Below are positions 5,179-20,541 of a stretch of DNA of 64,000 nucleotides, in pieces. The notes beneath the pieces were generated by a model. That model worked only from the letters and a program-made list of their open reading frames with translations. It did no database searches and had not been told where the DNA came from. The DNA comes from an uncultured SAR86 cluster bacterium (lineage in GTDB: Bacteria; Pseudomonadota; Gammaproteobacteria; Magnimaribacterales; AG-339-G14): the NCBI GenBank assembly GCA_902614235.1, contig CACMKG010000002.1, positions 17,354 to 81,353 on the forward strand, read 5' to 3'. Position numbers and translations under genes: made by a program. Each line of letters starts with the position of its first letter. Within the stretch, counting starts at the first letter, position 1.

Positions 5179-5304
5179 TTATGAAAAATAAAGAACTGCC
5201 ACCAAAACTATCCATAAAGAAATAAAACCAAATATAATCATCTCTTGTAATTGAGACTTTGCAGGTATTAATCTTTGATCTTTAAGAACAGTTTTAGTAT
5301 TCAT
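5179..5304 (-). CDS. Small 41-aa single-pass membrane protein, missing from the ORF track
   Basis: MNTKTVLKDQRLIPAKSQLQEMIIFGFISLWIVLVAVLYFS*; C-terminal hydrophobic helix; Pho-like repeats immediately upstream. Confidence 0.55.
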   Translation of the reverse strand: MNTKTVLKDQRLIPAKSQLQEMIIFGFISLWIVLVAVLYFS

Positions 5305-5311
5305 ATCTTTT

Positions 5312-5340
5312 TTGTAACTTAAATGACACTTTTATGTCAC
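5312..5340. promoter_or_regulatory. Triple 11-bp-period Pho-box-like array
   Basis: Minus strand GTGACAT-AAAA-GTGTCAT-TTAA-GTTACAA, ending 7 nt before the ATG at 5304. Confidence 0.65.
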
Positions 5341-5545
5341 ATAATAGACACAATAGACTAATTTTATATAAAAAACTAGCATTTTTTTTAAAACTATAAA
5401 ATTTAAATATTTTAAAATTTAATTCAATTCCAATTTCAGTTTAGTCCTTAGGCTGATAAGAAATAGATTTATCCAGAACAATAAAAGGCAAAGGTAAGAA
5501 TTAATGGATATGAGTGTTTGAATTATTAGATATAAACTCTATAAG

Positions 5546-6667: not shown

Positions 6668-9179
6668 ATTCATCATATTGAGAAAGTCTTGAAGGATTGC
6701 CCCAATAATAGAATTCTGGTTCGTCATTTATATTAATTAAGTCTAATTTAAGAGTTAAATTATCATTCAAATAATATTTGGCTGTAAAGTCTATTTGCGA
6801 ATGATCGTCAGTAAATCTGATATTGTCATAATTTAGATTATCTACAGTAGTTTCTATATCATCATCAGCAAGATAATCTAAGTAATCGCTTCTTTGAGCT
6901 AACGAGAGTCTCATGTCAACTTTTCCTTTGTCGTACCCAATTGATAAATTTCTTGTGCTATCAGCGAGTTTTCTAAATGGAACGGTAAACACACCGGCAG
7001 CGCTAGGAACATCACTTTCAGCGTCAACTTCAGTTAAATTTAATGAGATGAATAAACCATCAAATGGTTCAGGAAGATTCACAAATTCACTGAAAAAATT
7101 GAATTCAATTCCATCAACTGTTGACTTTTCACTGTTAATGTATGTTTCTAATTCGCTAAAGTTAATCCCTCCAACAACACCTGCTGTAACTTGAGGATAA
7201 ATAGCATTTTTAACATCTTTCCTAAAATAACCTATTGATACTGCGCCATTTTCATAATATCTTTCAAAGCTAAGATCTAGATTTGTAGATTCATATGGTT
7301 CTAAGTCAGGATTACCCATTTCTCCCTTATAAATTGTACTTCCATCCGCTGCAGTTCCATCCGATTTAAAGTCTGCTACGGGAGCAGTTTCACCAAATCC
7401 AGGTCTAGATAAAGATCGAAAAATTGCACCACGAACTATTGTGTCGTCATTGACGAAGTATTTTACGTTTACACTTGGTGATACGAATGTGTAATTTTTA
7501 GAAGCTCTAATAGTAGAGTCATCTTCTTTATTGTATCCAAGTGTATCAAATGAAGTGTCCTCTGCCCTTAGACCAGCAATCACAACTGCATTTTCAAATT
7601 CCATTGTGCCCATTAAATAAAGTGCTGTGATATCTTCTTCAGAAACAAAATCTTTGTCAAAGTTAGGTTTTGCATAGTTATTTGTTAATGAACCAAATGT
7701 GCCCTGAAGAGCGAAGATTGTTGCAGGATCTGCCATGGGACCAAAAACATTTGGCCAAGGCCAGTTAACTGGTGTAGTAATTGGATTGTAATTTGATTGA
7801 GAAGTACCAGGATCCGAAGCGAAACCTGAAACAGTTTTTTCTTTTTCTCGAGTGCTATATTTGAAGCCAAATTTTAAAGTCGTTGGAACATCAGAAACCG
7901 TAAAACCTTCTTTTGTAAAATCAGCCTGAAATGATGATATTGTGTCATCAATTACAGAATCTTCCTCTTCAATCTCATCTACTCCCATGCTTGCTGGATC
8001 ATAAATATTTCCAGCCCCAGTAGTAATTGCAGTAGCTAGAGTCATACGTGGTATTTGAGGATTTGAATAATCAAAAGATCCGCAAGGTCCTCCACAAGCA
8101 GCTGCCTTAAAGGTACTACTTCTAAACTTTGCATCAACATTGTCTGTATCATCTTCTTCAGCAAAAGAATTCGAAAATGCGAACTCTGCATCCCAGCCGT
8201 TGACTATTGTGTTACCACCTAGAATGAATGTTCTGATTGTTCTAACTTCCTCCCTAACTCTTACTTCTGCATCTCTTCTTATTTCTGTAATAGTGCTTCC
8301 TGTAGCAGTAACATTACTGTTTTTTAACTTCCCGTACTCGTCTTTATACCTGAGCTCATCATCCACGTATTCATTCCATAAAATATTTGCATACATAGAT
8401 GATTCATCATTGATCCTATAGTCAATGTCGTAAGTAATACCTAATCTTTCTCTGGTTAAATCATAATATCTGCTTTCAAAATCATCATCTATTGCAAAGT
8501 TTCCACCAGTGGCAGCCCAAGCAGGAAAACCGGTTTCATTGTTGTAAGTAATTACTTGTTTTTTAGAATAAGTAAGACCAATTATATGTCCTGCATTTTC
8601 ACTAATCAGATCTCCGTAGGTAAGGGAGATTTTAGGATTATCATTATTATATGTTTGATCGTTGTATTGGGTATTTACTTTTAGTTTTAAATACGTGCCA
8701 TCCAAGTCTAGAGCGCTTTTCGTATTGAACTCAACTCTTCCGCCAATAGAATCAAGATCTTGATCAGGAGTTAAAGATTTGTATACTTCAATAGAATCTA
8801 GAAGTTCTGTTGGTAGACCGTCAAGCATCACTTTTCTTCCACCTTCTGGTGCTGGAATAGTTGCGCCATTGACAGAAATGTTGTTTAAGTCTCCAGAAAG
8901 ACCTCTAACGGTAACATAACGGCCCTCACCTTGGTCGTTTTCAACTGAAATACCTGAGATTCTTCTTAGAGCCTCTGCAGCGGTAGTATCTGGAAATTCA
9001 CCTAAGGCATCTGAATCTATAACAGATAAAATCTGATTGGAATCCCTTTGCTTTTCTATAGCAGAGATGATGCTAGCTTTTGTTCCAACTACCAACAATT
9101 CCTCAGTAATTTCTGAGTCTTCTTGTGAAAATACAAAAGGGTTTGCAAAAATTAAAATAAATAAATATATTTTTTTCAT
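6627..9179 (-). CDS. TonB-dependent receptor, phytase-associated
   Basis: Plug motifs DALGEFPDTTAAEALRRISGISVENDQGEGRYVTVRGL and IEVYKSLTPDQD; GNPDLEPY; aromatic C-terminus. Start set at MKKIYLF because the -10 at 9204-9209 excludes 9200. Confidence 0.95.
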   Translation of the reverse strand: MKKIYLFILIFANPFVFSQEDSEITEELLVVGTKASIISAIEKQRDSNQILSVIDSDALGEFPDTTAAEALRRISGISVENDQGEGRYVTVRGLSGDLNNISVNGATIPAPEGGRKVMLDGLPTELLDSIEVYKSLTPDQDLDSIGGRVEFNTKSALDLDGTYLKLKVNTQYNDQTYNNDNPKISLTYGDLISENAGHIIGLTYSKKQVITYNNETGFPAWAATGGNFAIDDDFESRYYDLTRERLGITYDIDYRINDESSMYANILWNEYVDDELRYKDEYGKLKNSNVTATGSTITEIRRDAEVRVREEVRTIRTFILGGNTIVNGWDAEFAFSNSFAEEDDTDNVDAKFRSSTFKAAACGGPCGSFDYSNPQIPRMTLATAITTGAGNIYDPASMGVDEIEEEDSVIDDTISSFQADFTKEGFTVSDVPTTLKFGFKYSTREKEKTVSGFASDPGTSQSNYNPITTPVNWPWPNVFGPMADPATIFALQGTFGSLTNNYAKPNFDKDFVSEEDITALYLMGTMEFENAVVIAGLRAEDTSFDTLGYNKEDDSTIRASKNYTFVSPSVNVKYFVNDDTIVRGAIFRSLSRPGFGETAPVADFKSDGTAADGSTIYKGEMGNPDLEPYESTNLDLSFERYYENGAVSIGYFRKDVKNAIYPQVTAGVVGGINFSELETYINSEKSTVDGIEFNFFSEFVNLPEPFDGLFISLNLTEVDAESDVPSAAGVFTVPFRKLADSTRNLSIGYDKGKVDMRLSLAQRSDYLDYLADDDIETTVDNLNYDNIRFTDDHSQIDFTAKYYLNDNLTLKLDLININDEPEFYYWGNPSRLSQYDEYGRSATIGFTYKY

Positions 9180-9203
9180 AGTAATAATCCTTAATTCCAT
9201 ATA

Positions 9204-9237
9204 AATTTACAGGAAGATTGTTACAGAGATGTTACGA
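9204..9237 (-). promoter_or_regulatory. PhoB-activated promoter of the receptor-phytase operon
   Basis: Minus strand TCGTAAC-ATCT-CTGTAAC, then 10 nt, then TAAATT: canonical Pho box to -10 spacing. Confidence 0.8.
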
Positions 9238-9268: not shown

Positions 9269-9372
9269 AAAGAAATTTAAAAATAAAGAATCCTTATTTT
9301 ATTTCTCTAAATTGAAAAATAATACACGACAAAATTGCTGTGAAACTATTGTCCCAGTGTGACTAAATTTAA
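9269..9372 (-). repeat. Diverged copy of the pit promoter and first codons (matches 4983-5086)
   Basis: Colinear at offset 4286, e.g. caaaattgctgtgaaactattgtcccagtgtgact versus caaaattgttgagaaactgttgccttaatgtgact. Confidence 0.8.
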
Positions 9373-9788
9373 ATGTAATGATTGATATTAAGAATGAAAT
9401 CAAGAATTTCATCCCTTACCCTTCTATAAATATTTAATATTTTTTTCTCATCATTTATATTTTCTGAGAGCTTAGGAGGATCTTCAAAACCTTTGTGTAT
9501 GGTCTTTCCTTTGAACAAGACTGGACAGTTTTCTTCAGCATCAGAACATAAAGTAAAAACATAATCAAAATCTTTGTCTTCCAATTCGTTTATGGTTTTA
9601 GAGAATTGATCAGATATATCAATTTTGACTTCTGACATTACTTTGATTGCATATGAATTTAAGTTAGATTTTCTAGTGCCAGCTGAATAAGCCTGAAAAC
9701 TAGTAAATTTTTTTGCAAAACCTTCAGCCATTTGCGATCTACAAGAATTTCCAGTGCAGAGAAATAATATTTTCTTCGATTCTCTCAT
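9369..9788 (-). CDS. arsC: Arsenate reductase, LMW-PTP (thioredoxin-coupled) family
   Basis: ILFLCTGNSCRSQMAEG P-loop, TLC...CP resolving cysteines, FEDP, RRVRDEI. Confidence 0.92.
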   Translation of the reverse strand: MRESKKILFLCTGNSCRSQMAEGFAKKFTSFQAYSAGTRKSNLNSYAIKVMSEVKIDISDQFSKTINELEDKDFDYVFTLCSDAEENCPVLFKGKTIHKGFEDPPKLSENINDEKKILNIYRRVRDEILDFILNINHYI

Positions 9789-10429
9789 CTTAAAAATTTA
9801 TAAATATACAAAGCAATGAACAAACCAATTAATTGGCCTGAAAAGAAATAAATAATCGACTCTGGTGAAATTCCAGTAAAGGTATCCGTAAATGTCCTAG
9901 CTAGAGTTACTGCTGGATTTGCGAATGAAGTAGACGATGTAAACCAATAACCTGCTGTAATAAATAAAGCCACTGAAATAGCTACATTAGACTTATTATT
10001 TTTTCTAACCATTAAGATAGTTAAAATTAATCCCAATGATGCAATTATTTCACTTAAAACCATGCTGATCCCCATCCTGGGTTTGGATGAGATTTGAAGC
10101 AAACTAAGTTCAAATATGAAATGGATTAATATTACTGCGAAAATTCCTGCAATGAATTGAATAACTAAATAGAAGAGTAAATCCTTTAAGTTGATCTCTT
10201 TTAAAAAATAAAAGACTATTGAGACAATTGGATTAAAGTGAGCTCCTGATAAATCTTCAAAAGATTTAATGATGACGTAAAGAATTGCTCCGGTTGCAAT
10301 CGTATTACCTAATAAAGCCACTGCCACGTTACCAGAAGATAAATTATCACCCATGATCCCGGAACCAATGACTGTAGCCACTAAGAAAAAGGTTCCTAAG
10401 AATTCAGCAATGTATTTTTTTATTTTCAT
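9785..10429 (-). CDS. MIP/aquaglyceroporin, arsenic-associated AqpS-like
   Basis: AEFLGT, SGAHFNPIVS, YWFTSSTSFANPAVT; 4-nt overlap with arsC. Confidence 0.9.
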   Translation of the reverse strand: MKIKKYIAEFLGTFFLVATVIGSGIMGDNLSSGNVAVALLGNTIATGAILYVIIKSFEDLSGAHFNPIVSIVFYFLKEINLKDLLFYLVIQFIAGIFAVILIHFIFELSLLQISSKPRMGISMVLSEIIASLGLILTILMVRKNNKSNVAISVALFITAGYWFTSSTSFANPAVTLARTFTDTFTGISPESIIYFFSGQLIGLFIALYIYKFLR

Positions 10430-10614
10430 TAATTCCTAAAATCAAACTTTTTTTCTTTAACTTAATATAAAAGCTCTCACAATTTCCCTGTTACTAATTC
10501 ATATTTTTACATCAATATTAAGGAAACTACTTCTTGTGTTTTATTTAAATTCATTTCGATAAGTAGCTCTCTTTGTCTTTAACAGTAATTAAATTAATTT
10601 AATGTTTATATTAG

Positions 10615-10642
10615 AAAAGGCCATATCTAAATATGGCCTTTT
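10615..10642. terminator. Intrinsic terminator downstream of the lipoprotein-receptor operon
   Basis: AAAAGGCCATAT-CTAA-ATATGGCCTTTT perfect 12-bp stem. Confidence 0.85.
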
Positions 10643-10708
10643 TGAAGTGTTTTTATTATAAACAGAGAAAAAACAAAAACTTAACTTCGATTCATAGAAA
10701 TAAACCTC

Positions 10709-13336
10709 CTATTTAAAGGAGAATTTAAATCCTAATGAAGCTGATTGACCAAGATCATATTGATCGTATATTGCAATATTTCTCATAGAAGCATAATACT
10801 CCTCGTCAAGTAAATTTCTTAATTCAAGCGACAATTTCAAATCGTAATTAGGGTAAGCTAAAACTCTTGAATATGTAAAATCAACCAATAATGGAGGTTC
10901 TTCAATAATATCTGGTAAAACATCAATACCTCTAGCCCTTACTCTATCACTAACATAGTTAAAGATTAGGGTAGCTTCAGATTGATCTTGTAAATTATCT
11001 AAACCAATTTGAAAGTTTGCAATTGAATCTGATTGACCCTGTAATCTGGTATCTCTTCCATTCGCTAGAAGAGTTTGAGCATTTACTGAAGTACCAAGAT
11101 TATTTATATAAGTATCTCCAGGATTCACAATTACTTCAGAGTCAGTATCCGTATAATTGAACTTAACGATTAAGTCGTTTTTAGAGTCCATTATCGCCTC
11201 AAATATTTGTTCATATTCAATTTCAAAACCAGTGATTTCAGCCGTAGGAACGTTTTGGTATGAAGTAATAATTAAATCACCTGACTCATTAACAGTTTCT
11301 TCGATGGGATTAAGAATATCCTTATAAAAAATTCCAGCTGTTAAAAATTGATTTAAACCAAAATAGTATTCAGCTCTTAAATCAATATTGTCAATCTCAC
11401 TATCTTGCAAATATAGTGAACCAGCTATTACTCTGTCAGTATCAACATCTATAAATAGTGTCGGAGAAAGCTCTCTGAAGGTTGGCCTAGCAATTGTCTG
11501 AGAAAGACCCAATCTAAATTGAAGGTTTTCATCAAATTCAGGAAGATAAGTTAATGTCATTGAAGGTAGCGTGTAATCTTCTTCTATTGATTTATCAATA
11601 GTAGAGTCAACGCCTGTAAATAAATCAAATGTATTAACTTGCTGAAGGCCGTCTTCTTGCCTAATTCCAGCAGTAATTTCAAAATTATCTCCAATTTTAG
11701 ATTCAAAGCTGATATACGCTGCATCAACTTCCAACAATCCTAAGTACCCAGCTGGCGATGAACTTGCCGTATTCTCAATTACCATCAATCTATTAGGATC
11801 AAAATTTTGATCAGCAAAAATATAATCTATTCTATTATCTAGACCATCTCGAGGTATGGGACCGCCAGCAGCCAGAAATCTATAACTTCTAACTTCAGCC
11901 GATCTGTCATTTTCAAGACTTTCAACTCCAGCTCTTAAAAATGTTGAAGAACCAAAGGGTATCTCTAAAGGTATTTCTAAATCTATAACAACATTTGTAG
12001 TTTGATCTTCGACCATACTAAACTGGGTTTGGTTCCTACCTGTATTAACATCGTATAAGTAAACTCCGTCACTGTTTCCATCTTCATAGAAAGCAACTCT
12101 TTCATAAGGAGAATCTCTCTCTGCCTCTCCATCACTCAAACCTACATTTAAATTCCAGCCATTTTCAAAAGTCTTATTAAAATTTAACTGATGATTTGTT
12201 AATTCTCTTTCGTAAAATTCTAGAAAATCTTCTCGAACATTAGCCGAATCACTTGAGTCATACCCTTGCAAGATACGAGCTTCTTTTGATCCTTTATGAA
12301 TATATAATCCGGTGTATTTTAATTCAGATAAATCCGTTTCAACCCCAAGAACAGCCATTGCATATGCTGTAATGTCATTCGTTGTGCTTCTAAAAGTTTT
12401 GTTATTTTGAACTACTACATTAACAATACCGCCCAGACTTTGTAAATCACCGGTTTGTCTGATTCCTTCTTGTGTATCCCAAGAATTTTTGTAACCTCCT
12501 GTAACCATAAATCCCATTGTTGCACTTGGAATATTAATGATTTGATCAATTCCTAAACCGTCAAGACTATCTCCATAAGTCAAACTATAAGATTCATCTA
12601 GAGGAACCTCTCCTGATTGTATGACCCATAGCTTTGAATTTTCAAACTCTCGACCAAAGTTAGCCAATTGTGTGGTATTAAAGTTAGATCTATCAAGTTT
12701 AAGTCTGCTATTGATAGCGTCCTGAACACTGCTTGGAATTGATCTGATCCCGTCATCGTACCCAAAACTATCCTCTCCGCCGTCGTACATTAACCCATCA
12801 TCTTTTAACGAAGTAGCGGAGTTGAAACTTGCTGAAGCTGAAAATTCAAAGATTCTATCTAAAGGCACAGCCTTTGTTTTTATCTCAACCATACCTCCGC
12901 CAAACTCACCAGGCATGTCAGCTGAATAAGTTTTTTGTACTACAGACGATTCAATGATGCTTGTTGGAAAAAGATCAAGTGGTACAACTCTTTTGAGTGG
13001 TTCTGGGCTTGGAAGATTAAGGCCGTTTAGTGAAGCAGATGAATATCTATCACCTAAACCTCTTACATATACGTATTTACCTCGCACTAGGCTGAGACCC
13101 GCAAGTCTTGTAAGGGCGATAGCAATATTGTCATCACCAGCTCTTTCGATACTTGATGAATCTAATATTGCAGAAATCTCAGATGTATTCCTTTTTGCGT
13201 CTGGTATAAAAGATCCACTTACAACCAACTCTTCATCAGCTTCCTGAGCATTAATAATTAATGGGAAAACTATTATGAAAGGTAAAGCAAACTTTAAAAA
13301 ACCCATGATTTTGTTTATTTTTTTTGTAGATTTCAT
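10709..13336 (-). CDS. TonB-dependent receptor partnered with the surface lipoprotein
   Basis: YVYVRGLGDRYS, LPSPEPLKRVVPLDLFP and KTYSADMPGEFGGG plug motifs; barrel motif SQTIARPTFRELSP; GGAG RBS. Confidence 0.95.
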   Translation of the reverse strand: MKSTKKINKIMGFLKFALPFIIVFPLIINAQEADEELVVSGSFIPDAKRNTSEISAILDSSSIERAGDDNIAIALTRLAGLSLVRGKYVYVRGLGDRYSSASLNGLNLPSPEPLKRVVPLDLFPTSIIESSVVQKTYSADMPGEFGGGMVEIKTKAVPLDRIFEFSASASFNSATSLKDDGLMYDGGEDSFGYDDGIRSIPSSVQDAINSRLKLDRSNFNTTQLANFGREFENSKLWVIQSGEVPLDESYSLTYGDSLDGLGIDQIINIPSATMGFMVTGGYKNSWDTQEGIRQTGDLQSLGGIVNVVVQNNKTFRSTTNDITAYAMAVLGVETDLSELKYTGLYIHKGSKEARILQGYDSSDSANVREDFLEFYERELTNHQLNFNKTFENGWNLNVGLSDGEAERDSPYERVAFYEDGNSDGVYLYDVNTGRNQTQFSMVEDQTTNVVIDLEIPLEIPFGSSTFLRAGVESLENDRSAEVRSYRFLAAGGPIPRDGLDNRIDYIFADQNFDPNRLMVIENTASSSPAGYLGLLEVDAAYISFESKIGDNFEITAGIRQEDGLQQVNTFDLFTGVDSTIDKSIEEDYTLPSMTLTYLPEFDENLQFRLGLSQTIARPTFRELSPTLFIDVDTDRVIAGSLYLQDSEIDNIDLRAEYYFGLNQFLTAGIFYKDILNPIEETVNESGDLIITSYQNVPTAEITGFEIEYEQIFEAIMDSKNDLIVKFNYTDTDSEVIVNPGDTYINNLGTSVNAQTLLANGRDTRLQGQSDSIANFQIGLDNLQDQSEATLIFNYVSDRVRARGIDVLPDIIEEPPLLVDFTYSRVLAYPNYDLKLSLELRNLLDEEYYASMRNIAIYDQYDLGQSASLGFKFSFK

Positions 13337-13365
13337 TTTGACTCCAAAATAGGTTTTAAAAGGTG

Positions 13366-16300
13366 TTAGTTAAGTTTAATTGATCCAGGTACTGTCCATA
13401 CTTTGTACCAGTCATCAGTAGCTCCACTAACTGCACCTATATGTGTAGTAGTGTCAAAAAATCCATCGGCATTGTATGTTGAAGGAATAGCTGTCACAGT
13501 AGCTGCGGTCTCAGCAGGACCGTTTATAGCTACACCGTTACCGCTGTATACAAGTGCATTGCTACTATTGAGCTCTTTTCCTAAATTATTTACATAATTA
13601 CCACCGCCAGAATTAGCTCCATAGAGATTATTTGATCCTGCCTTAACGATCGTTTCTACATCTGAAGCTGTTTTACCTCCTGCTGTGTCTGAATCTACAG
13701 TGACAAAACTAGGACAATCAAATGCAACGGAATTAAAGGAGAAATTAGGAGTGGTTGCTCCATCAGCAATAGTTTGCGCCGTGTATGTTGTTTCAATGCA
13801 ACCCTTTGTTAAGCCAGAAGCTGCGTTAAGGACTGCAGCAACTCCATTGTAATATTGACCCGATACACCCTCTTTTAACTTGAATACCTCGTCATGGCCT
13901 CTACTTATGAAAGTAAAGTTAGCAACAATGGGGTTTGATCTAGGCTCTGTTAGGTAGACTACTCCAGCTCTAGTATCAGAGTTTGTGTTGTCTGATTCCA
14001 CAATGTGATCACCTGTATCGTTGGACTGTTGAATTAATACGTGTTGAAGTCTTCCTTGATAACCCCAATCAATGTCCAAGTTATCATCACCCGCTCCAGT
14101 ACATATCAAACGTTTCACATCGACTGTTCCACCAAAGAACTCAACGCAATCGTCAGCATTGTTATGCACTTGAACATATTCAACCGAAGTACCGTTTCCA
14201 ACACCACCAAAAGTAATTCCATTTAGCTCATTACCTGGAAATATTTCATATCCTGCATACTGAACTCTTACATATTTGAGTGATCCACTGCTGTCAGCAG
14301 GTATTTCACCACCCATTACATCTCCAGCTGATCCCTCAACCTCTTTTTGACAAGGGACAGCTTTTGCTCCTGCTGTGTATGTACACTTATTAATAGGTGC
14401 TTGACCAAGGATGACTAATCCACCCCAAAGACCTCGTGTTGAGTTAACATCTGCTTGACCAAGAATATCTTGTTTTCCAGTCATTATAATTGGAGCTGAT
14501 TTTGTTCCAACAGCATTAATATCGGACCCTCTCATAACAACTAAATAGTCATTACCTGATTCACCAAAAATTGTAACGCCAGGGTTAACAGTTAGTGTAG
14601 CTGTATCACCGTTTGTAGCAGTGCCATCTGCTCCTACATCAACACCGATTTGAACTTTACCATCAAGCTTATAATAGTTTCCTGCAACTAGAGTTAGGTC
14701 ATCTTTAACAATTCCGCTTAAGTCACAGACTTTTCTACCTTGGAGAATTCCTGATTCAAGGGTTCCAGCTGGACATGCAGGATCGGCAAATAAACCAATT
14801 GTCCAACCTGCAGCCCAGTTATTTTCTACATCAGATCCAGGTGCAAATGCACCAATATAATTTGTAGCAGAGAAGAATGTATCGACTGCATAAGTATAGT
14901 CGGGAGTGTTTGTGTCAGAAACGTCTGTTCCTGCACCACACAATCCTGATTTTGGTGCAGCACCGGCTGCATGAGTTCCAACTTCACACATAGCGTTCTT
15001 TTGTCCTGTGGCGAAAGCGCTAGGAACAGCAGACTCTGCATTACCCAAGAAATATGTATCCACCAAAGTATTGGTTCCAACGGTTAAATTAGTTGATCTT
15101 GAATTAAGTGATGTAGCAAAAGCTGGTTTAGTTACTGAGGTATCATCTCCATACGTTACTAGTGTCGCATCTAACGCTGTAGGTTGTCCTGTCTCAGCTG
15201 AATCAAAAAATATGGAATGATGGGCAATTTTATCTGTTAATGCACCATCTTGGATAGTTTCTGCAAAAGTACCGTCTATGAGATCTTTTGCTGTTTGGTT
15301 TACAACAATACCATTGATATAAATTCCAGATACACCTTCTTTATACTTAAGTGGTTCGTCAACCCCACCACCAATAAAGGTAAAATTAGCAACCATTGGT
15401 TGTGATCTAGGTTCTGTTAGGTAGCCTACTGATGCATCAGAGTTTGTGTTGTCTGATTCCACAATGTGATCACCTGTGCCAACCTTTTGTTTAACAACAA
15501 CAAATTGCATTTTTCCTTGATAACCCCAATCAATGTCAAGATTATCATCGCCTGCATTCGTGCAAACTAAATGTTTGACATTTACAGTTCCACCGAAAAA
15601 CTCTACGCAATCATCTTGGTTGTTATGAACTTGAACGTAATCTACTGAGGTACCAGAACCAACGCCACCAAAAGTAATACCATTTAATTCGTTGCCTGGG
15701 AATATTTCTTTACCAGCATATTCAACTCTTACAAAGTTTAAAACACCAGAGTTATCAGTTGGAGTAGCTCCACCCATAATAGCAGTAGTCGAACCCTCAA
15801 CCACTCTTTCACAATCAGCAGTGTTTAAATTAGCAGCAGCACACTTATTAATTGGTGCTTTTCCTAAAATTACTATTCCTCCCCATAGACCAGATGCAGT
15901 ATCCGGATTAGTTAAAGATCCATCAATTGCAGAAGCTGCAGTAAATCTGATAGGTTGAGATCTTGTTCCATTAGCAATAATTTTTGAACCTCTTTGAACA
16001 ACAAGGTAATCATCAGGTGTTTTTTGAGCAAGCGTTACACCGGCTGGAATCGTTAATGTTGCTGAAACTCCTCCAGCTTTTTGACCGTTTCCGCCCATAT
16101 CCTTTCCAACATCAACCAAACCAGATAAACGATACATTACATCAGTTGTCAAAGTAAGATCTGAAGTAATTGGTCCCGTGATTGCACATAATGTGTTACC
16201 ACCAAGAGTTGCATTATCAGAAATAAACGGAGAAGAAGGACACGTTCCTGTTAATAAGGTGCTAGTAGTAGCTCCAAAATTATCAGTGCCACTTGGGGCT

Positions 16301-16416
16301 GTTAGTGGTGCTAGTTCACCAGGCGATGCAACATTGGTATCACCTGAACCGCCACAAGAAACTACAACGAAGATTGAAAGAACTGACAATAAGTATTTAA
16401 TTGATTTTGGGTTCAT
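13366..16416 (-). CDS. Large outer-membrane lipoprotein with two tandem parallel beta-helix-like domains (ElpS-like, inferred)
   Basis: Lipobox VVSC-GG; AGAGG RBS; duplicated motifs GLWGG(I/L)VILGxAPINKC, GNELNGITFGGVG, DDCVEFFGGTV, GDDNLDIDWGYQG and GDHIVESDN. Confidence 0.85.
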   Translation of the reverse strand: MNPKSIKYLLSVLSIFVVVSCGGSGDTNVASPGELAPLTAPSGTDNFGATTSTLLTGTCPSSPFISDNATLGGNTLCAITGPITSDLTLTTDVMYRLSGLVDVGKDMGGNGQKAGGVSATLTIPAGVTLAQKTPDDYLVVQRGSKIIANGTRSQPIRFTAASAIDGSLTNPDTASGLWGGIVILGKAPINKCAAANLNTADCERVVEGSTTAIMGGATPTDNSGVLNFVRVEYAGKEIFPGNELNGITFGGVGSGTSVDYVQVHNNQDDCVEFFGGTVNVKHLVCTNAGDDNLDIDWGYQGKMQFVVVKQKVGTGDHIVESDNTNSDASVGYLTEPRSQPMVANFTFIGGGVDEPLKYKEGVSGIYINGIVVNQTAKDLIDGTFAETIQDGALTDKIAHHSIFFDSAETGQPTALDATLVTYGDDTSVTKPAFATSLNSRSTNLTVGTNTLVDTYFLGNAESAVPSAFATGQKNAMCEVGTHAAGAAPKSGLCGAGTDVSDTNTPDYTYAVDTFFSATNYIGAFAPGSDVENNWAAGWTIGLFADPACPAGTLESGILQGRKVCDLSGIVKDDLTLVAGNYYKLDGKVQIGVDVGADGTATNGDTATLTVNPGVTIFGESGNDYLVVMRGSDINAVGTKSAPIIMTGKQDILGQADVNSTRGLWGGLVILGQAPINKCTYTAGAKAVPCQKEVEGSAGDVMGGEIPADSSGSLKYVRVQYAGYEIFPGNELNGITFGGVGNGTSVEYVQVHNNADDCVEFFGGTVDVKRLICTGAGDDNLDIDWGYQGRLQHVLIQQSNDTGDHIVESDNTNSDTRAGVVYLTEPRSNPIVANFTFISRGHDEVFKLKEGVSGQYYNGVAAVLNAASGLTKGCIETTYTAQTIADGATTPNFSFNSVAFDCPSFVTVDSDTAGGKTASDVETIVKAGSNNLYGANSGGGNYVNNLGKELNSSNALVYSGNGVAINGPAETAATVTAIPSTYNADGFFDTTTHIGAVSGATDDWYKVWTVPGSIKLN
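13975..15537. repeat. Identical DNA blocks shared by the two lipoprotein domains
   Basis: 42 bp identical at 13975-14016 and 15436-15477; 25 bp identical at 14052-14076 and 15513-15537; both at offset 1461. Confidence 0.9.
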
Positions 16417-16454
16417 AAGATTTCCTCTTTAACTAATAAAAAAATAGTAGAGCA

Positions 16455-16499
16455 ACTTTACGCAGAGATAGTTACAGAAATATTACGAAACCGTTACGT
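16455..16499 (-). promoter_or_regulatory. PhoB-activated promoter of the lipoprotein-receptor operon
   Basis: Minus strand ACGTAAC-GGTT-TCGTAAT-ATTT-CTGTAAC, then 10 nt, then TAAAGT. Near-identical architecture to 9204-9237. Confidence 0.82.
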
Positions 16500-16605
16500 C
16501 TTTTTAAAGATAATGAAAATTATTACAAAAAAAAGTCAAAAAAAAATTTTGTTTTGAAATAAGAGATTTAGTTACGGTTTAAAACTTTAACTAAAAAGTT
16601 CTAAT

Positions 16606-16665
16606 TTGACATAAATGTTACATATATGTTACATTTATGTAAATTATGTTACGTTTATGTTACAT
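16606..16665. promoter_or_regulatory. Extended Pho-box-like array (5-6 half-sites) overlapping a sigma70-like promoter
   Basis: TTGACATAAAT GTTACATATAT GTTACATTTAT GTAAATTAT GTTACGTTTAT GTTACAT, with TTGACA at 16606. Confidence 0.75.
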
Positions 16666-16685
16666 TTAAAAGAGGGAGAATTGTT

Positions 16686-17111
16686 ATGAAATACTTTAAA
16701 AATATTATTTTTTTATCAATCATTTTAGCTAGTACAACTGTCATGGCTAATAAAGTAATTTTTGAAAGTGCTAAAAAACATTTAAATTTAGACTCAAAAT
16801 ATATAGAGATTGAATATGATTTAAATCTAGTTAAAGACTTTTGTCCAAAACAATCAGTAGGCTGCTATATATCTGCTGACATGGGTAGAATATTTGTAGA
16901 AAATGATTTATCGAAAACGTATCATGATGTTGTGATTTTTGGTCTATATAGCGATTATCTTCAACATTCAAATATTGGATTAATAGATAGTTCTTTGACT
17001 TGTGATTTAAAAGTTAACTATCTAATAGAGGAAAAGCAAAATGATCTCGCAGATCTTTTTTCTAATCATTGTAACGATATTAAACGAAATAAATTCTTGG
17101 CATTTAATTAA
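16686..17111 (+). CDS. Secreted hypothetical protein, 141 aa, four cysteines
   Basis: AGAGGGAG RBS at 16671-16678; signal peptide MKYFKNIIFLSIILASTTVMA; own terminator. Confidence 0.8.
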   Translation: MKYFKNIIFLSIILASTTVMANKVIFESAKKHLNLDSKYIEIEYDLNLVKDFCPKQSVGCYISADMGRIFVENDLSKTYHDVVIFGLYSDYLQHSNIGLIDSSLTCDLKVNYLIEEKQNDLADLFSNHCNDIKRNKFLAFN

Positions 17112-17126
17112 TAGATATGAGTAAGT

Positions 17127-17157
17127 TATAAAAGGGCAAAGTTTTAGCCCTTTTATA
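17127..17157. terminator. Bidirectional intrinsic terminator
   Basis: TATAAAAGGGC-N9-GCCCTTTTATA. Confidence 0.85.
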
Positions 17158-17159: not shown

Positions 17160-17451
17160 CATGAGATCTTTTCAAACTTAGTCCGTTACAACACCGTTGG
17201 AATTTTTTACTTCATCTCATACATGACCATCGGTAAGATCTAATTCTTATTGAACTTAGTAAATTTTAGTCAATCCGTCAAAACCCAAAATTCCTTTATC
17301 TCCTTATCTAGGTGCATTGATAAAATAATTACCAGTGCCATTACCGTCATTAGCAGCCATATTTATTTGGCCATAAACATTTAGAATAGCTTATGAATTA
17401 GTGTTAAGAAGCGCAAATAAAATTGTTTACAATAAAAATTTAATCTTCCAT
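17160..17451 (-). pseudogene. Decayed 5' part of a Gram-negative trimeric porin gene
   Basis: One frame reads KIKFLL*TILFALLNTNS*AILNVYGQINMAANDGNGTGNYFINAPR*GDKGILGFDGLTKIY*VQ*ELDLTDG, matching the porin pattern VYG.IN...NASRLGxKG....GLxAIYQxEyE.D..DG, with many in-frame stops. Confidence 0.75.
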
Positions 17452-17487
17452 AAAAACTTAGCTAGAATAGGTCCTCGCCAAAAAAAC

Positions 17488-18321
17488 ATGATTGAATTTG
17501 ATATACCAAACTACAGGAGAATTGATTCTAAGCTTTATGATAAAGAAAAGAGAAAGCTTTTAATTGAACTCGTCAAACTTCAGAATTGGATCATACAAGA
17601 GAAAAAAAAGATTGCCGTAGTATTTGAAGGAAGGGACACAGCTGGCAAGACTGGGAGTATTTCTGTTTTATCTAAATACTTAATACCAAAACACTGTCGT
17701 CTAGTTAAATTAGGGATTCCTACTGCAAGAGAATCAAAAAACTGGTTTCAAAGATATGAGAAACAGTTACCAGATGTAGGTGAATTAGTTTTTTTTGATC
17801 GATCTTGGTATACCAGAGCTTTAGTTGAATCAACCATGGGCTATTGTACAAAGGGACAATACAAATCTTTTATGAAAAAAGTTGTGCCCTGGGAAAAAAA
17901 ACTTAGAGAAAATGGTACAGAAATACTTAAGTTTTATTTATCCATAGAAAAAGGAACTCAAAAAATGAGAATAGAAAAACGCAAAAATAGTCCTTTGGTA
18001 TATTGGAAAATAAGTGAAAACGATTTAAAAGGTTTAGACAGATGGGATATTTTTACCCTGTATAAAGAGCAAATGTTTAAAAATACTTCCTATTCTGAAG
18101 CACCTTGGATAGTTTTAAATGCAAACGATAAAAAGATAGCGGTGCTGCACGCATTACGCTATATCCTAGGAAGATTTGATTATCCTGATAAAAAATTACC
18201 AAAGCCAAAGGTTTGGACAGAGAATATTAATGATTACTCTCTAAAGATAAATAAAGTTCCTTTTGATAACTTAAGTTATCAGCAATACAAGGTATTAAAA
18301 GTTATGGCAGATGCAGAATAA
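17488..18321 (+). CDS. ppk2: Polyphosphate kinase 2
   Basis: ELVKLQNW, FEGRDTAGK Walker A, WFQRY, FFDRSWY, WKIS, APW. Start moved from GTG 17401 to ATG 17488. Confidence 0.93.
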   Translation: MIEFDIPNYRRIDSKLYDKEKRKLLIELVKLQNWIIQEKKKIAVVFEGRDTAGKTGSISVLSKYLIPKHCRLVKLGIPTARESKNWFQRYEKQLPDVGELVFFDRSWYTRALVESTMGYCTKGQYKSFMKKVVPWEKKLRENGTEILKFYLSIEKGTQKMRIEKRKNSPLVYWKISENDLKGLDRWDIFTLYKEQMFKNTSYSEAPWIVLNANDKKIAVLHALRYILGRFDYPDKKLPKPKVWTENINDYSLKINKVPFDNLSYQQYKVLKVMADAE

Positions 18322-19201
18322 AACTCAACGCTTAGCTTGTATTGATATTGGTTCAAACGCAATTAAATATCGTCAATATCGTATATCAAAACAAAAAAGT
18401 ACAAATTTTACTGAGCTAGATACTTTTAAAAGAATTTCAGTGAGACTTGGAACCGATGCATTTAAATTTAAAAAAATTTCTTCTGAAACTGAACAGAAAT
18501 TATTAAAAAGCATAATGAAACTCAAAGTTAAGGCCGATAAAAAAGATGTAAAAATAATTACTGGGGTAGCTACCTCTGCAATGAGAACAGCTTCAAATGG
18601 ACATAAAATTTGTAAAAAAATAAGAAAAAAAACCGATATAGAAATAAAAATCTTATCCGGAAATGAAGAAGCGCAGCTGCTAAATTTTTTTAATTACAAA
18701 GATTTTAATAAAGAAGAAACCTTGGTCGTGGATATTGGTGGTGGCAGTACCGAGTTGTTCCATCGAGGAAACGGCAAACATCTTGCAAAGTCTTTTCCGC
18801 TTGGTGCAGTGCGAATTTTAGAAGGAAAAGACTCACCCAAGCATTGGAATAATTTAAAAGAATGGCTAACAAAAGTTCCATCTGAAAATATAAGAAATAT
18901 AGTTGGTGTTGGTGGAAACGCTAGACTCATCAATGAAATTATCAACAGACAAGATAGAAAATCATCCTTAGAGGAATTAAAAGTTTTAAAAAAAGAACTA
19001 GAGAACAAGAATTTTGAAGAAAAAGTATCATTTTATTCTCTACCCGAGGATAGAGCCGATATTCTTGAACATGCTATAGCTATTTTTATAGAAATCATTG
19101 GATTTTTTCCTAACTCTTTCTTATTCGATAGTTCTTGGAATATTGCTGACGCAGTGATAGAAAAAGAACTACAGGAAAACAAGAATATTCAAGCAGCTTG
19201 A
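18311..19201 (+). CDS. ppx: Exopolyphosphatase, Ppx/GppA family (short form)
   Basis: IDIGSNAIK, VATSAMR, ILSGNEEA, VDIGGGSTE and DRADI motifs. Confidence 0.92.
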   Translation: MQNKTQRLACIDIGSNAIKYRQYRISKQKSTNFTELDTFKRISVRLGTDAFKFKKISSETEQKLLKSIMKLKVKADKKDVKIITGVATSAMRTASNGHKICKKIRKKTDIEIKILSGNEEAQLLNFFNYKDFNKEETLVVDIGGGSTELFHRGNGKHLAKSFPLGAVRILEGKDSPKHWNNLKEWLTKVPSENIRNIVGVGGNARLINEIINRQDRKSSLEELKVLKKELENKNFEEKVSFYSLPEDRADILEHAIAIFIEIIGFFPNSFLFDSSWNIADAVIEKELQENKNIQAA

Positions 19202-20541
19202 ATTGATTTTTCTTCATCGATTTTTACATCGATAAAGAAAGTTGCACCTTTAGGCTTATTCGATCCAATTCCTAAGGAATACCCCATCATCAAAGCTAAA
19301 TTTTTACTGATCGAAAGGCCTAAACCTGTACCGCCTATTTTTGTCGATCGACCTTTGTCTATTCTGTAAAATCTTTCAAAAATTCTTTCTCTGTATTTTT
19401 TTGGTACGCCTTTACCTTGATCTGATACGGATAGTCTTATAAAACCCTTAGAAGAGTATGATTCTTCTATGTTTATGAGGCTTTTTTTAGGCGAATGTTT
19501 GATAGCATTACTTAAGAAATTTGTCAGGATAATGTTCAAAGCAGCTGCATCAGCCATTACCCTAGTTTGTTTGTTCAAATTATTTTGCACAGTTAATTTT
19601 TTCTCTTCTAAATTGGATTTAAATCCTTCAATTAAGTTATTGACAATTGAAAATGAATCTAAAGACTCAATTGAGATCGGATATTCCCCTGCTTCCATGC
19701 TTGAAATTTTAAGCAAATCATTAACAATTACTTTCATACGTTCTGATTGAGAAGATATTGCTTCCGTGAAGAACTTAGCGTTTTCATCATCTTTAATTAA
19801 TTTATTGTTAATCAAAGTTTCAGCATTAGCTTTGATAACACTAATTGGTGTTCTCAATTCATGAGAGACGTTTCCAATAAAATCTTCTCTCATTTTTTCA
19901 AGGTTTTTAGATTTGGATATGTCACTAAAAACAATCAACAATTCATCTCTGATGTCATCTTTTTTAGCACTTACCAGATAAACAGTCTTTATAGATTTAG
20001 GGCCTGAAATCTCTCTAACCAAGTCTTCTTTAAACCAGGCTTTTTCAATAAATTTTTTTAATTGAGGGTAACTAACTTTTTGAAAGAGCTTATCGCCAAT
20101 TTTTAAGTCAGACCAAAATTCTGAATTAATAGTCTTATTCGCAAACAATACTTGATGGTTTCTATCGACTAAAATAACTCCTTGTCCCATTTTTGATAAC
20201 ACAGAGCTAAATTGTTCAGTTTGTTGAGAGTAATTAACTAGCTCATCTTTAACTTGCCTAGATTCCTTAAGAAGGTTATCAAAAATTTCTTCAGAAGCCA
20301 CTGAAGGATGATCCATATTATTTTTGGCGATAAACTGAGCTGCTGAATTTAATAGTCTTTTAAAATATTGATAAATTAAATAGGTTGCGACAATTGTGAT
20401 AAGCAATAATAAACCGATGCCTACGATTAGGTTTTCATTCAGAGAGATATCCTCTCTATAAAATATAGATGCAACCAAGCTTACTGAAGATACAAGTATT
20501 AATATCAACAGAAACAGTCTCAATTTTACCGAAAATTTCAT
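19189..20541 (-). CDS. phoR: Phosphate regulon sensor histidine kinase
   Basis: Two TM helices, PAS-like region, H-box FIGNVSHELRTP, NAIKHS, FERFYRIDKGRS...GGTGLGL; follows phoB. Confidence 0.9.
   Translation of the reverse strand: MKFSVKLRLFLLILILVSSVSLVASIFYREDISLNENLIVGIGLLLLITIVATYLIYQYFKRLLNSAAQFIAKNNMDHPSVASEEIFDNLLKESRQVKDELVNYSQQTEQFSSVLSKMGQGVILVDRNHQVLFANKTINSEFWSDLKIGDKLFQKVSYPQLKKFIEKAWFKEDLVREISGPKSIKTVYLVSAKKDDIRDELLIVFSDISKSKNLEKMREDFIGNVSHELRTPISVIKANAETLINNKLIKDDENAKFFTEAISSQSERMKVIVNDLLKISSMEAGEYPISIESLDSFSIVNNLIEGFKSNLEEKKLTVQNNLNKQTRVMADAAALNIILTNFLSNAIKHSPKKSLINIEESYSSKGFIRLSVSDQGKGVPKKYRERIFERFYRIDKGRSTKIGGTGLGLSISKNLALMMGYSLGIGSNKPKGATFFIDVKIDEEKSIQAA

Follow-up and report, generated by a model that had tools for sequence, protein, structure and literature searches.

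A tandem ElpS-family lipoprotein and its TonB-dependent receptor in a phosphate island of a SAR86 bacterium

To date, the closest described counterpart of the locus considered here is the lipoprotein ElpS (cc0170/CCNA_00169) of Caulobacter crescentus, whose pairing with the TonB-dependent receptor cc0171 was noted in 2010 (PMC2996285). According to that report, ElpS is a palmitoylated protein of the outer membrane that is induced by phosphate starvation and can be attacked by proteinase K. In the experiments described there, neither refolded ElpS from E. coli nor immunoprecipitated extracellular ElpS had phosphatase activity toward pNPP, and deletion of elpS left the phosphatase activity of the supernatant unchanged. 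Overexpression of elpS raised the alkaline phosphatase activity of the supernatant, and ElpS was cleaved off the cell. The receptor cc0171 was reported to be constitutive, unlike elpS (data not shown in PMC2996285), so that joint regulation of lipoprotein and receptor is not universal.

Comparable pairs are known from Bacteroidota. BT4056/BT4055 of Bacteroides thetaiotaomicron and Fjoh_0546/Fjoh_0545 of Flavobacterium johnsoniae combine a lipoprotein of the same family, assigned to the pectin-lyase superfamily, with a non-SusC transporter (bioRxiv 10.1101/2023.03.17.533168; PMC8115612). This combination of a TonB-dependent transporter and a 'lid' lipoprotein is stated to be conserved in 621 genera, and in an AlphaFold-Multimer model BT4056 sits against the extracellular side of BT4055 with few high-confidence contacts (bioRxiv 10.1101/2023.03.17.533168). 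The region of the PhoBR operon includes Fjoh_0545/0546, which respond with log2FC values of 8-10 to phosphate depletion only; like the SAR86 stretch described below, F. johnsoniae encodes a transporter associated with a phytase (PMC8115612; bioRxiv 10.1101/2023.03.17.533168). In both Caulobacter and Flavobacterium, few outer-membrane systems are induced as strongly by phosphate starvation as the ElpS–receptor module.

The DNA analysed here (the window) is a stretch of 64,000 nt from SAR86 contig CACMKG010000002.1 (positions 17,354 to 81,353, forward strand). It encodes P0001, an ElpS-family lipoprotein of 1016 aa (13366-16416, minus strand, from the ORF and its translation). The translation begins MNPKSIKYLLSVLSIFVVVSC, followed by GG, and comprises a signal peptide and lipobox (residues 1-21, both read by eye, with VVSC at 18-21), a low-confidence linker to about residue 53, and two tandem domains predicted to be right-handed parallel β-helices. 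Domain 1 spans residues 59-545 (14782-16242, minus strand), and the paralogous domain 2 spans residues 546-1016 (13369-14781, minus strand). A glycine occupies position +2 of the lipobox, where no residue for inner-membrane retention was seen by eye, in line with the ElpS family. Aligned with each other, the halves are 56% identical across 356 aa (E 2e-127), and each carries the acidic motifs DDCVEFFGG (residues 268-276 and 755-763), GDDNLDID (289-296 and 776-783) and GDHIVESDN (315-323 and 802-810). A two-domain lipoprotein with such motifs in each domain had been proposed from the letters alone, and the ORF coordinates, the identity between the halves and both motif sets confirm it.

The suggested kinship with ElpS was confirmed as well. 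Caulobacter spp. database proteins, used in place of the CB15 ElpS sequence, are lipoproteins of about 487 aa (P0318, P0345, P0315) that match both halves of P0001 end to end, with 37% and 34% identity (E 2e-73 and 5e-71). They share with P0001 the homologous domain, the lipobox, the stretch VASPGE after the cysteine and the C-terminal pattern YIGA...W..GWT, and the synteny of lipoprotein, receptor and T2SS resembles that of cc0170/cc0171/gspC-N as given in PMC2996285, including the phosphate-starvation setting. Yet, several differences are present: P0001 has two tandem domains instead of one; of GDHIVESDN, the Caulobacter proteins preserve just a part, with the Glu retained and the Asp lost; and the SAR86 T2SS lies 8 kb away, separated from the receptor by PHO4, a phytase with a second receptor, and an arsC-aquaporin pair. 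A Xanthomonas arboricola locus (L050) that matches P0001 at 2e-68 contains lipoprotein, receptor and gspD in the gene order of the xcs clusters with the ElpS homologue XAC0692 (PMC7777525). Bacteroidota relatives score lower, with 28-33% identity.

Neither the local Pfam release, which lacks the PF28492 model, nor NCBIfam gave a match for P0001. PF28492.1 is annotated on a database protein 99% identical to P0001 and on all 120 relatives listed, and in the Atlas, where it is named Beta_helix_4, it is carried by 100% of the members of the clusters. By homology, P0001 is a two-domain member of the ElpS/BT4056/Fjoh_0546 family, annotated as PF28492 in its relatives; the family is very widespread, with 5590 representative clusters counted. 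Some relatives are labelled 'trimeric autotransporter adhesin' in one source; this label was rejected because the translocator domain is missing and a lipobox is present. A full-text literature search for PF28492 found no paper that names it, and a search on SAR86 with TonB, phosphate limitation and phytase found nothing relevant. To our knowledge, no ElpS-family member has a known substrate, metal or activity. The sequence-only reading had announced a new system; since the ElpS–receptor pair has already been described, the SAR86 pair is not new in kind but a member of a known family, preceded by ElpS/cc0171 (PMC2996285), the Bacteroides and Flavobacterium pairs (bioRxiv 10.1101/2023.03.17.533168; PMC8115612) and PF28492 itself.

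The receptor gene P0002 (875 aa, 10709-13336, minus strand) starts 29 bp after the lipoprotein stop codon, and its product is a cc0171-type partner with Plug and OMP β-barrel domains in Pfam. Its score against TIGR01782 of NCBIfam is 189.8 bits, below the cut-off of 310 bits. Neither P0001 nor P0002 has a SusD- or SusC-specific match in Pfam or NCBIfam; hence, the locus is not of the SusC/SusD type by these models. Among 80 loci from other genomes, a similar receptor was found at 150 bits or more in 76, and in 66 it lies directly downstream of the lipoprotein on the same strand, in agreement with the earlier claim of a dedicated receptor. It is upstream rather than downstream in four loci. Homologues scoring 500-580 bits stand beside a lipoprotein homologue in Xanthomonas, Asticcacaulis and Brevundimonas, and the receptor adjoins the lipoprotein in every locus of the SAR86 order with room for it.

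The pair is embedded in a phosphate island. On one side, ppk2 (17401-18321) and ppx (18311-19201), both on the plus strand, are 1 kb from the lipoprotein locus, and phoR (19189-20541) and phoB (20542-21240), both on the minus strand, are 2.8 kb from it. On the other side, the minus strand carries an aquaporin (9785-10429), an ArsC-like phosphatase (9369-9788), a second TonB receptor (6627-9200) with GTAAC-N6-GTAAC at 9220-9235, a β-propeller phytase (5546-6727), and a PHO4 phosphate transporter (3759-5009) preceded by four Pho boxes spaced by 11 bp (5314-5351). The T2SS follows, with a prepilin peptidase (3002-3751, plus strand), gspC (2074-2904) and gspD (174-2066) on the minus strand, and gspE and gspG just past the left edge of the window. 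It is the only T2SS found in the genome, where one GspE exceeds the Pfam cut-off; it is linked to the pair, as in the ElpS family, though not adjacent to it. The ppk2-ppx and T2SS neighbours named from sequence were all identified. PhoD is encoded in the genome, whereas the searches detected neither PhoX nor PhoA, and PstS-like proteins appeared below the cut-off only; as the genome is 90% complete, these negatives mean 'not found' and not 'absent'.

Elsewhere in the family, gspD (at least 200 bits) occurs in 24 of 80 loci and phoB (at least 140 bits) in 16, none of which has both. Family neighbours include a kinase with a PhoR domain, PstS-like, Ppx and PstB-like proteins, and a PhoR-like kinase is located immediately upstream in two loci (L089 and L090). 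Together with phoBR and the GTAAY motif in the window, these neighbours bear out the suggested link to phosphate regulation. The wider linkage to ppk2, ppx and phoBR, which had been put forward for survey, stood for phoB but not for the other two: ppk2 is a neighbour in one of the 80 loci and ppx in four (tblastn) or six (clustering), although ppk2 was seen near the lipoprotein in the five closest orthologous loci. In the neighbourhood clustering, 20 of the top clusters were annotated. Those left out were L051:9935-11530(-), present in 8 loci and probably antisense to the lipoprotein, L069:21568-21942 (7 loci) and L020:21522-22031 (6 loci).

Upstream of the lipoprotein gene, a proximal Pho-box-like element of three GTAAY half-sites with 11-bp spacing (16471-16497, minus strand) lies 55-81 nt before the ATG. 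A distal array of TGTAACAT-type repeats with the same spacing (16606-16663, minus strand) is located between the lipoprotein gene and a divergent small gene. The GTAAY motif is kept in 6 of 10 orthologous loci, and the proximal element in the six closest ones (L083-L088). In the window, GTAAY-N6-GTAAY was observed six times against 0.36 expected. Genome-wide there are 18 matches, six of them intergenic, and five of these six fall in the phosphate island; the sixth (C1:324304) precedes a 699-aa protein that matches no Pfam family and, by eye, lacks a signal peptide. With three mismatches allowed, the E. coli Pho-box consensus is not enriched in the window (two matches vs 5.1 expected), and one of its two matches is the array upstream of PHO4. 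A strict triple GTNWC pattern found, in the whole genome, the PHO4 upstream site only (shuffles, 0-2), and the lipoprotein repeats miss it because one half-site ends in T. The GTAAC repeats are called Pho-box-like; that they act as the Pho boxes of SAR86 is our own reading of the motif, under which the locus would be Pho-regulated in this bacterium.

No terminator-like site was detected in the 29-bp gap between the two genes, and a terminator-like hairpin follows the receptor gene (10614-10643), with a second at 10705-10722 overlapping the stop codon. Contigs from seawater RNA libraries of four studies, which carry no phosphate metadata, overlap 27-28 of the 30 bins examined. They bridge the lipoprotein–receptor junction in three of four runs, which does not prove a single transcript, and the two genes are presumably co-transcribed from a Pho promoter. 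No contig from the four runs falls within 16456-16700 and several end at 16425-16433, which is not evidence for a transcript start.

Structure prediction gave a model of whole P0001 with a pLDDT of 87.1 and a pTM of 0.82; domain 1 alone reached a pLDDT of 78.7. Residues 1-53 form a low-confidence linker in the model and are compatible with a tether and cleavage site. Whole-model Foldseek yielded three matches with E ≤ 0.001, each of them a PL6 alginate lyase at a TM-score of about 0.2, and domain 1 alone yielded none at that threshold. The best whole-model matches (E 1e-4 to 3e-2) are the PL6 alginate lyase AlyGC (5gkd) and GH55 β-1,3-glucanases (3eqn, 5m5z), which are tandem right-handed β-helices like P0001, but the TM-scores are low (0.16-0.25), identity is about 10%, and there is no sequence-level relation. 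VIA-align superimposed domain 1 on β-helix glycan lyases, hydrolases and epimerases with Z values of 15-21 over 250-310 residues. Among these are the single β-helix glycan-active proteins CBA120 TSP2 tailspike (6w4q), an alginate epimerase/lyase (8ja4), AlgE4 (2pyg), NosD (7o0y) and Pel9A (1ru4), with Z of 17-21 and rmsd of 3-4.3 Å for 257-296 residues. Since Z falls smoothly from 21 to 15 across 50 unrelated families, no PDB family is singled out; the closeness is generic and is brought out by VIA-align only. Sequence searches of the PDB with P0001 and with a profile of 46 sequences (alignment A1) gave chance-level rows only (E ≥ 0.47). The expected β-helix fold is thus supported by the models, Foldseek and VIA-align, the suggested comparison with pectate-lyase-like β-helices having matched β-helix enzymes with PL6 best for the whole model. 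P0001 is predicted to share the right-handed β-helix of glycan depolymerases, a fold that by itself reveals no function.

The acidic motifs form a ladder of side chains, whose carboxylates would sit on three successive β-helix coils. It consists of H264, D268, D269, E272, D290, D291, D294, E320 and D322 in domain 1 (nt 15448-15627, minus strand) and of D755, D756, E759, D777, D778, D781 and E807 in domain 2 (nt 13987-14166, minus strand). Every one of the 46 sequences of A1 has D268, D269, E272, D290, D291, D294 and E320 together with the domain-2 counterparts, and these columns do not vary in any of the 28 sequences of a second alignment (A2) that includes single-domain forms. The ladder was compared with Ca2+-dependent β-helix lyases of PL1, PL6 and PL9. 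In Pel9A, the catalytic Ca2+ is held by Asp residues including a DDxxD-like stretch, which resembles DD(S/N)xD of P0001. Neither A1 nor A2 has an invariant or nearly invariant Lys, and the sole invariant Arg, in a VxRGS motif, precedes the ladder by about 125 residues; hence, the usual base for β-elimination is not evident.

We consider it probable, at roughly 60%, that the locus is a PhoBR-controlled, phosphate-starvation outer-membrane module of the ElpS type acting on a P-bearing polymer or complex. By analogy with ElpS, P0001 would be held by its lipid at the cell surface, on the outside of the outer membrane, and its ladder would hold Ca2+ or another divalent cation. The cation-loaded ladder would bind, and probably cleave, an anionic P-bearing extracellular polymer or complex, whose products would be handed to the cc0171-type receptor for import; periplasmic phosphatases such as PhoD and the PHO4 transporter would then complete phosphate use. 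That P0001 is exposed at the surface, binds a metal and acts as a catalyst, and on what kind of substrate, is what we infer here, and Ca binding or polyanion cleavage by P0001 is plausible. An acidic site repels phosphate unless a cation bridges the two, which counts against this explanation.

It is possible, though we would not expect it, that P0001 is instead a non-catalytic lid or binding partner on the outer face of the receptor, like SusD or BtuG, and captures a small P-containing ligand. The strict pairing, with the receptor directly downstream in 66 of 80 loci, would suit such a role, as would the modelled BT4056–BT4055 complex, the proximity in 621 genera (bioRxiv 10.1101/2023.03.17.533168) and the reported lack of pNPP phosphatase activity in ElpS (PMC2996285). 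However, relatives contain 1-5 domain copies per protein, a poor fit to a 1:1 lid, and P0001 keeps the full ladder in both domains of a fold used by polymer-active enzymes. Shed ElpS, moreover, still raises the phosphatase activity of the supernatant when overproduced (PMC2996285).

That last effect underlies the model of Le Blastier, which we regard as unlikely here: the protein would be shed by a T2SS-secreted protease and would activate or stabilise another phosphatase, the receptor being a mere neighbour. The raised activity on overexpression and the inactivity of purified ElpS (PMC2996285), the T2SS linkage in 24 of 80 loci and in the SAR86 island, and the PhoD gene accord with it. It leaves the near-universal receptor pairing unexplained, which loci lacking a T2SS show as well; loss of elpS did not alter phosphatase activity (PMC2996285); and PhoX and PhoA were not found in the 90%-complete genome.

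Uptake of extracellular polyP, bound or cut by the β-helices and imported by the receptor for Ppx and Ppk2, had been guessed from the adjacent genes and now appears very improbable. In principle, polyP might attach to an acidic site through a bridging cation, and ppk2-ppx lies 1 kb away, with ppk2 also in the five closest orthologous loci. Across the family, the single ppk2 locus among 80 leaves the guess nearly without support, ppx being rare too, and both enzymes are cytoplasmic, ordinary Pho-regulon members beside phoBR. A polysaccharide depolymerase and receptor for carbon acquisition, with coincidental phosphate neighbours, is hardly credible: most structural neighbours are alginate or pectate lyases, polygalacturonases and tailspike depolymerases and the receptor belongs to a TIGR01782-like group, but linkage to phoBR, PstS-like and Ppx genes recurs independently across phyla, induction in Caulobacter and Flavobacterium is specific to phosphate depletion (PMC2996285; PMC8115612), and the island showed no further carbohydrate-active genes.

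A bolder version of the preferred module, which we offer tentatively and think doubtful, is that ElpS-family domains are cation-dependent surface depolymerases or phosphodiesterases for P-bearing anionic polymers, and that the ElpS–receptor pair is a very widespread SusD-independent 'phosphate utilisation locus'. Polymers that could be named for such an activity include teichoic-acid-like phosphoglycans, phosphorylated or phosphonylated marine polysaccharides, nucleic acid and polyP. If so, such a locus would be active in the abundant ocean SAR86, and domain duplication or homogenisation would reflect selection for at least two near-identical catalytic units per anchor.

What the SAR86 locus adds to the known family is the upstream Pho-box-like GTAAC repeat, the RNA-library contigs over the gene, and the relationship of the domains, the N and C domains being exclusive sisters in 38 of 46 proteins. 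This sister relationship indicates recurrent duplication or homogenisation, and such duplication or concerted evolution is a further clue to the mode of action of the protein, while the invariant ladder offers concrete residues for mutagenesis. A tandem ElpS version now stands in the compact Pho island of a streamlined SAR86, and with the matching seawater RNA contigs this suggests that the family is relevant to marine dissolved organic phosphorus cycling. The lipoprotein gene was found in 16 of 31 related genomes and is thus accessory.

The divergent small protein (141 aa, 16686-17111, plus strand, likely MKYF start) has an N-terminal signal-like segment by eye; its mechanical ORF begins at 16626 (16626-17111, plus strand, 161 aa). 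It had been counted as a secreted component of the system, which did not hold for the family: local Pfam and NCBIfam gave no family and the Atlas no usable match, and among its 72 homologues none has a Pfam family and the few named ones are uninformative. From these searches, it appears to be an orphan limited to the SAR86 lineage, where it is adjacent to and divergent from the lipoprotein gene in six of the six closest genomes.

Three genes form the lipoprotein-receptor locus. The window has a G+C content of ~33% over its whole length, and SAR86 cluster bacterium is the label on the closest protein relatives among the matches listed. ORF calling places a TonB-dependent receptor gene (875 aa, 10709–13336) and a lipoprotein gene (1016 aa, 13366–16416) on the minus strand and a small divergent ORF (161 aa, 16626–17111) on the plus strand. 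The signal peptide of the 1016-aa protein ends in VVSC followed by GG, which was taken, by eye, as a lipobox. Its two halves share 56% identity over 356 residues (E 2e-127), and both contain DDCVEFFGG, GDDNLDID, and GDHIVESDN. The 875-aa protein consists of Plug and OMP beta-barrel domains (Pfam); its nearest NCBIfam model is TIGR01782, with a score under the cut-off of that model. ORFs, self-alignment, and Pfam thus agree with the sequence-only reading of a lipoprotein with two homologous domains, shared acidic motifs, and a TonB receptor next door. The receptor gene starts 29 bp past the lipoprotein stop, no terminator-like site was found between the two genes, and hairpins are located 3′ of the receptor stop.

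The minus-strand gene order is phoB, phoR, ppx and ppk2 (both plus strand), the small gene (plus strand), lipoprotein, receptor, aquaporin, ArsC-like phosphatase, second TonB receptor, beta-propeller phytase, PHO4 transporter, prepilin peptidase (plus strand), gspC, and gspD, with gspE and gspG immediately outside the window edge. Neighbor annotation therefore recovers the phosphate and type II secretion (T2SS) genes named earlier and adds further ones. The 1.09-Mb, 90%-complete genome contains a single GspE above the Pfam cut-off.

The lipoprotein had no match in the local Pfam and NCBIfam collections; PF28492 (Atlas name Beta_helix_4) is assigned to 120 of 120 database relatives among the matches listed. 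One domain used as query retrieved 5590 representative clusters at E ≤ 0.001 and 1904 at E ≤ 1e-30, and most of the best 150 of these clusters contain two matched stretches (range 1–5). Eighty loci were taken from named genomes, followed by a search with an Asticcacaulis single-domain member, which retrieved ~487-aa lipoproteins of several Caulobacter species. One of these, P0318, aligns with the two halves of the window lipoprotein at 37% and 34% identity (E 2e-73 and 5e-71), in both cases starting at the linker behind the lipobox and ending at the C-terminal YIGA...W..GWT motif. ElpS (cc0170), a lipoprotein of ~50 kDa whose lipobox is LAGC, has its gene directly 5′ of the TonB receptor gene cc0171 and gspC-N, and the same arrangement has been described for its homologs in Xanthomonas, Sphingomonas, and Hyphomonas (PMC2996285); according to a review, the ElpS homolog XAC0692 belongs to the Xanthomonas xcs clusters (PMC7777525). 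At the X. arboricola locus, the lipoprotein is followed by the receptor and then gspD, an order matching that described for the xcs clusters. Since the halves align end to end with Caulobacter lipoproteins and the gene order matches, the likeness to ElpS is homology, the comparison being with proteins of Caulobacter spp. and not with CB15 ElpS itself.

Directly after the lipobox cysteine lies a G(A)D.VASPGEG motif (residues 22–35 of the 1016-aa protein; columns ~177–192 of the 28-sequence alignment), kept from SAR86 to Caulobacter and sphingomonads, which may be a surface-sorting or cleavage signal; cleavage of ElpS occurs before residue 38 (PMC2996285). Some single-domain members (L061, L062, L066, L077, and L080) have an ordinary signal peptide and no lipobox, and L061, L066, and L077 carry an extra N-terminal domain of ~150 residues. 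Lipid anchoring is not universal among family members.

To date, several such pairs have been reported. One preprint, which names BT4056 as an ElpS homolog within the pectin-lyase superfamily, counts BT4055/BT4056 among the TonB transporters that have putative lipoprotein ‘lids’ and reports proximity of the pair in 621 genera (bioRxiv 10.1101/2023.03.17.533168). In F. johnsoniae, the PhoBR operon region contains Fjoh_0545 (transporter) and Fjoh_0546 (hypothetical lipoprotein, IPR011050), both with a log2FC of about 8–10 upon phosphate depletion, and the phosphate-deplete exoproteome is rich in such hypothetical lipoproteins (Lidbury et al., PMC8115612). A separate phytase-linked transporter, Fjoh_1368, is also present there (PMC8115612), mirroring the phytase with its own receptor in the window. 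ElpS was inactive as a phosphatase on pNPP, and its suggested role is to activate some phosphatase (PMC2996285). Because these three pairs are already in print, the system is known at the genomic and omics level and the claim of novelty finds no support; the locus adds a new member, tandem and marine, to a Pho-linked lipoprotein-receptor family that is already known and widespread.

The neighborhood is conserved in other genomes. With cut-offs of at least 150 bits (receptor), 200 bits (gspD), 140 bits (phoB), and 110 bits (phoR), a receptor homolog was found in 76 of 80 loci: directly downstream on the same strand in 66, and on the same strand within ~6 kb in 10 further ones (4 upstream, 6 downstream). 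It is missing in three loci with room on both sides, and one further contig is too short to judge. gspD follows in 24/80 loci; the proposed survey of phoBR linkage gave phoB nearby in 16/80 and phoR in 14/80. gspD and phoB never share a locus, and 40/80 loci contain one of the two. Clustering of the 1151 ORFs from the 80 loci, with Pfam run on 20 cluster representatives, revealed further neighbors (number of loci in parentheses): T2SS components (GspE 20, GspF 16, GspC 16, GspG 10), an OmpR-type regulator (15), a kinase with a PhoR domain (13), ExbB/ExbD/TonB (6–9), a 2OG-Fe(II) oxygenase (9), an ABC ATPase (8), a porin (7), Ppx (6), and a PstS-like protein (6). Within the window's own order, 16 of 31 genomes have a lipoprotein match, 10 of them a full-length two-domain ortholog, and the receptor always adjoins the lipoprotein wherever the locus has room. 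The upstream neighbor there is ppk2 with the small gene (five loci), a PhoR-like kinase (L089, L090), or aquaporin/PHO4. The lipoprotein gene is accessory, as a match was found in only two of eight further genomes of the window's genus.

An AlphaFold2 model of the lipoprotein, built from the alignment of 46 two-domain proteins (pLDDT 87.1, pTM 0.82), predicts a disordered N-terminal stretch of 53 residues followed by two beta-helix domains, a confident model that supports the fold named beforehand. Foldseek matched the whole model best, with low TM, to the two-domain beta-helix enzymes PL6 AlyGC and GH55. Domain 1 modeled alone (pLDDT 78.7) superposes at Z 15–21 on phage tailspike depolymerases, alginate lyases/epimerases, polygalacturonases, pectate lyases, and NosD; since Z falls off smoothly, no beta-helix family is singled out. 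Sequence profiles revealed no solved relative. D268, D269, E272, D290, D291, D294, and E320 and their domain-2 equivalents are identical in 46/46 two-domain proteins, and the same columns are identical in 28/28 sequences including single-domain and non-lipoprotein members; H264 is nearly invariant. A 22-residue spacing stacks D268/D269/E272 directly above D290/D291/D294 on consecutive coils, forming a carboxylate ladder. Ladders of this kind hold Ca2+ in beta-helix lyases or supply catalytic acids in GH28-type hydrolases. The alignments contain no conserved Lys, and the sole invariant Arg (VxRGS) is far from the ladder in sequence.

The lipoprotein probably serves surface capture and processing: the lipid-anchored protein would bind an anionic P-bearing polymer or complex via ladder-held cations and would probably cleave it, the cognate receptor would import the product, and PhoD and PHO4 would finish phosphate uptake. 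Alternatively, the lipoprotein could be a pure lid on the receptor, as suggested by the lack of an evident lyase base and by an AlphaFold-Multimer model in which BT4056 sits on the outer face of the barrel, with few confident contacts (bioRxiv 10.1101/2023.03.17.533168). However, every domain copy retains the ladder, proteins carry one to five such copies, the fold is that of depolymerases, and ElpS still has an effect once released from the cell; predicted substrate cleavage is probably the better account. Extracellular polyP uptake, suggested solely from the ppk2-ppx adjacency, finds no backing, as ppk2 occurs in 1/80 loci and ppx in 4–6/80, and the adjacency tracks phoBR, not the lipoprotein.

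The 46 two-domain proteins were split into N and C domains and placed in a tree with single-domain members. In 38/46 proteins, the two domains are exclusive sisters (median support 1.0), and one protein is ambiguous. The seven SAR86-clade proteins group in a single clade, their N domains in one subclade and their C domains in another, and therefore share one duplication predating their divergence. Single-domain forms are nested among two-domain clades; together with the sister pairs, this means that the doubled architecture does not go back to one ancient fusion. The tree indicates either its repeated origin or gene conversion that keeps the two domains similar (concerted evolution), and the number of domains (1–5) is labile in the family. 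No mention of this pattern was found in the consulted passages of the ElpS-family literature.

The lipoprotein gene and the divergent small gene are separated by a 270-bp spacer that contains TGTAAC/CGTAAC repeats with an 11-bp period. GTAAY-N6-GTAAY occurs six times in the window (0.36 expected) and 18 times genome-wide; five of the six intergenic matches lie in this island, two before the lipoprotein (16471–16497), two in a distal array (16606–16663), and one before the phytase-linked receptor (9220–9235). The six closest orthologous loci retain the proximal element, in some cases with the sequence CGTCAC, and more distant loci have TGTAAC or TGTCAC words in its place. Upstream of PHO4 (5314–5351) are four repeats at 11-bp spacing, GTGTC/GTGAC/GTGTC/GTTAC, two of them similar to the E. 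coli Pho box, although the canonical E. coli consensus is not enriched in the window. These repeats support PhoB control, short of proof. RNA-library contigs from four seawater studies cover 27–28 of 30 bins of the stretch, and the lipoprotein-receptor junction is bridged by a contig in three of four runs; such contigs can derive from DNA and are no proof of a single transcript.

The small gene, with a likely start at 16686 (MKYF...), shares the repeat-rich spacer with the lipoprotein gene and may be co-regulated with it. Its product has no family in Pfam, NCBIfam, or the Atlas; its 72 homologs, all at least 49% identical, have no Pfam family, and the few that are named have uninformative names. 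In the six closest genomes, though not in more distant ones, the gene lies divergently next to the lipoprotein gene; it is no component of the family-wide module.

The genome encodes PhoD (C6:23066–24160); PhoX, PhoA, and, at the Pfam cut-off, any PstS-type binding protein were not found in its 90%-complete assembly, so phosphate import may depend mainly on PHO4. Outside the island, a single intergenic GTAAY-N6-GTAAY pair exists, located before the gene of a 699-aa protein (G000:C1:324304–326655; L081 2505–4856) that matches no Pfam family and shows no signal peptide by eye. The beta-propeller phytase is preceded by its own TonB-dependent receptor (5546–9235, minus strand), with GTAAC-N6-GTAAC immediately upstream; because the two mechanical ORFs overlap by ~100 nt, translation of the phytase probably begins at a later codon. 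The repeats upstream of PHO4 are followed by an ORF of ~41 codons (5180–5351, minus strand), itself upstream of PHO4; its product has a hydrophobic tail and may be a leader peptide or small membrane protein. Between the two receptor operons lie the ArsC-like low-molecular-weight phosphatase and the aquaporin (MIP) (9369–10429, minus strand), consistent with detoxification of arsenate alongside phosphate scavenging; L092 and L093 likewise have an aquaporin next to the lipoprotein.
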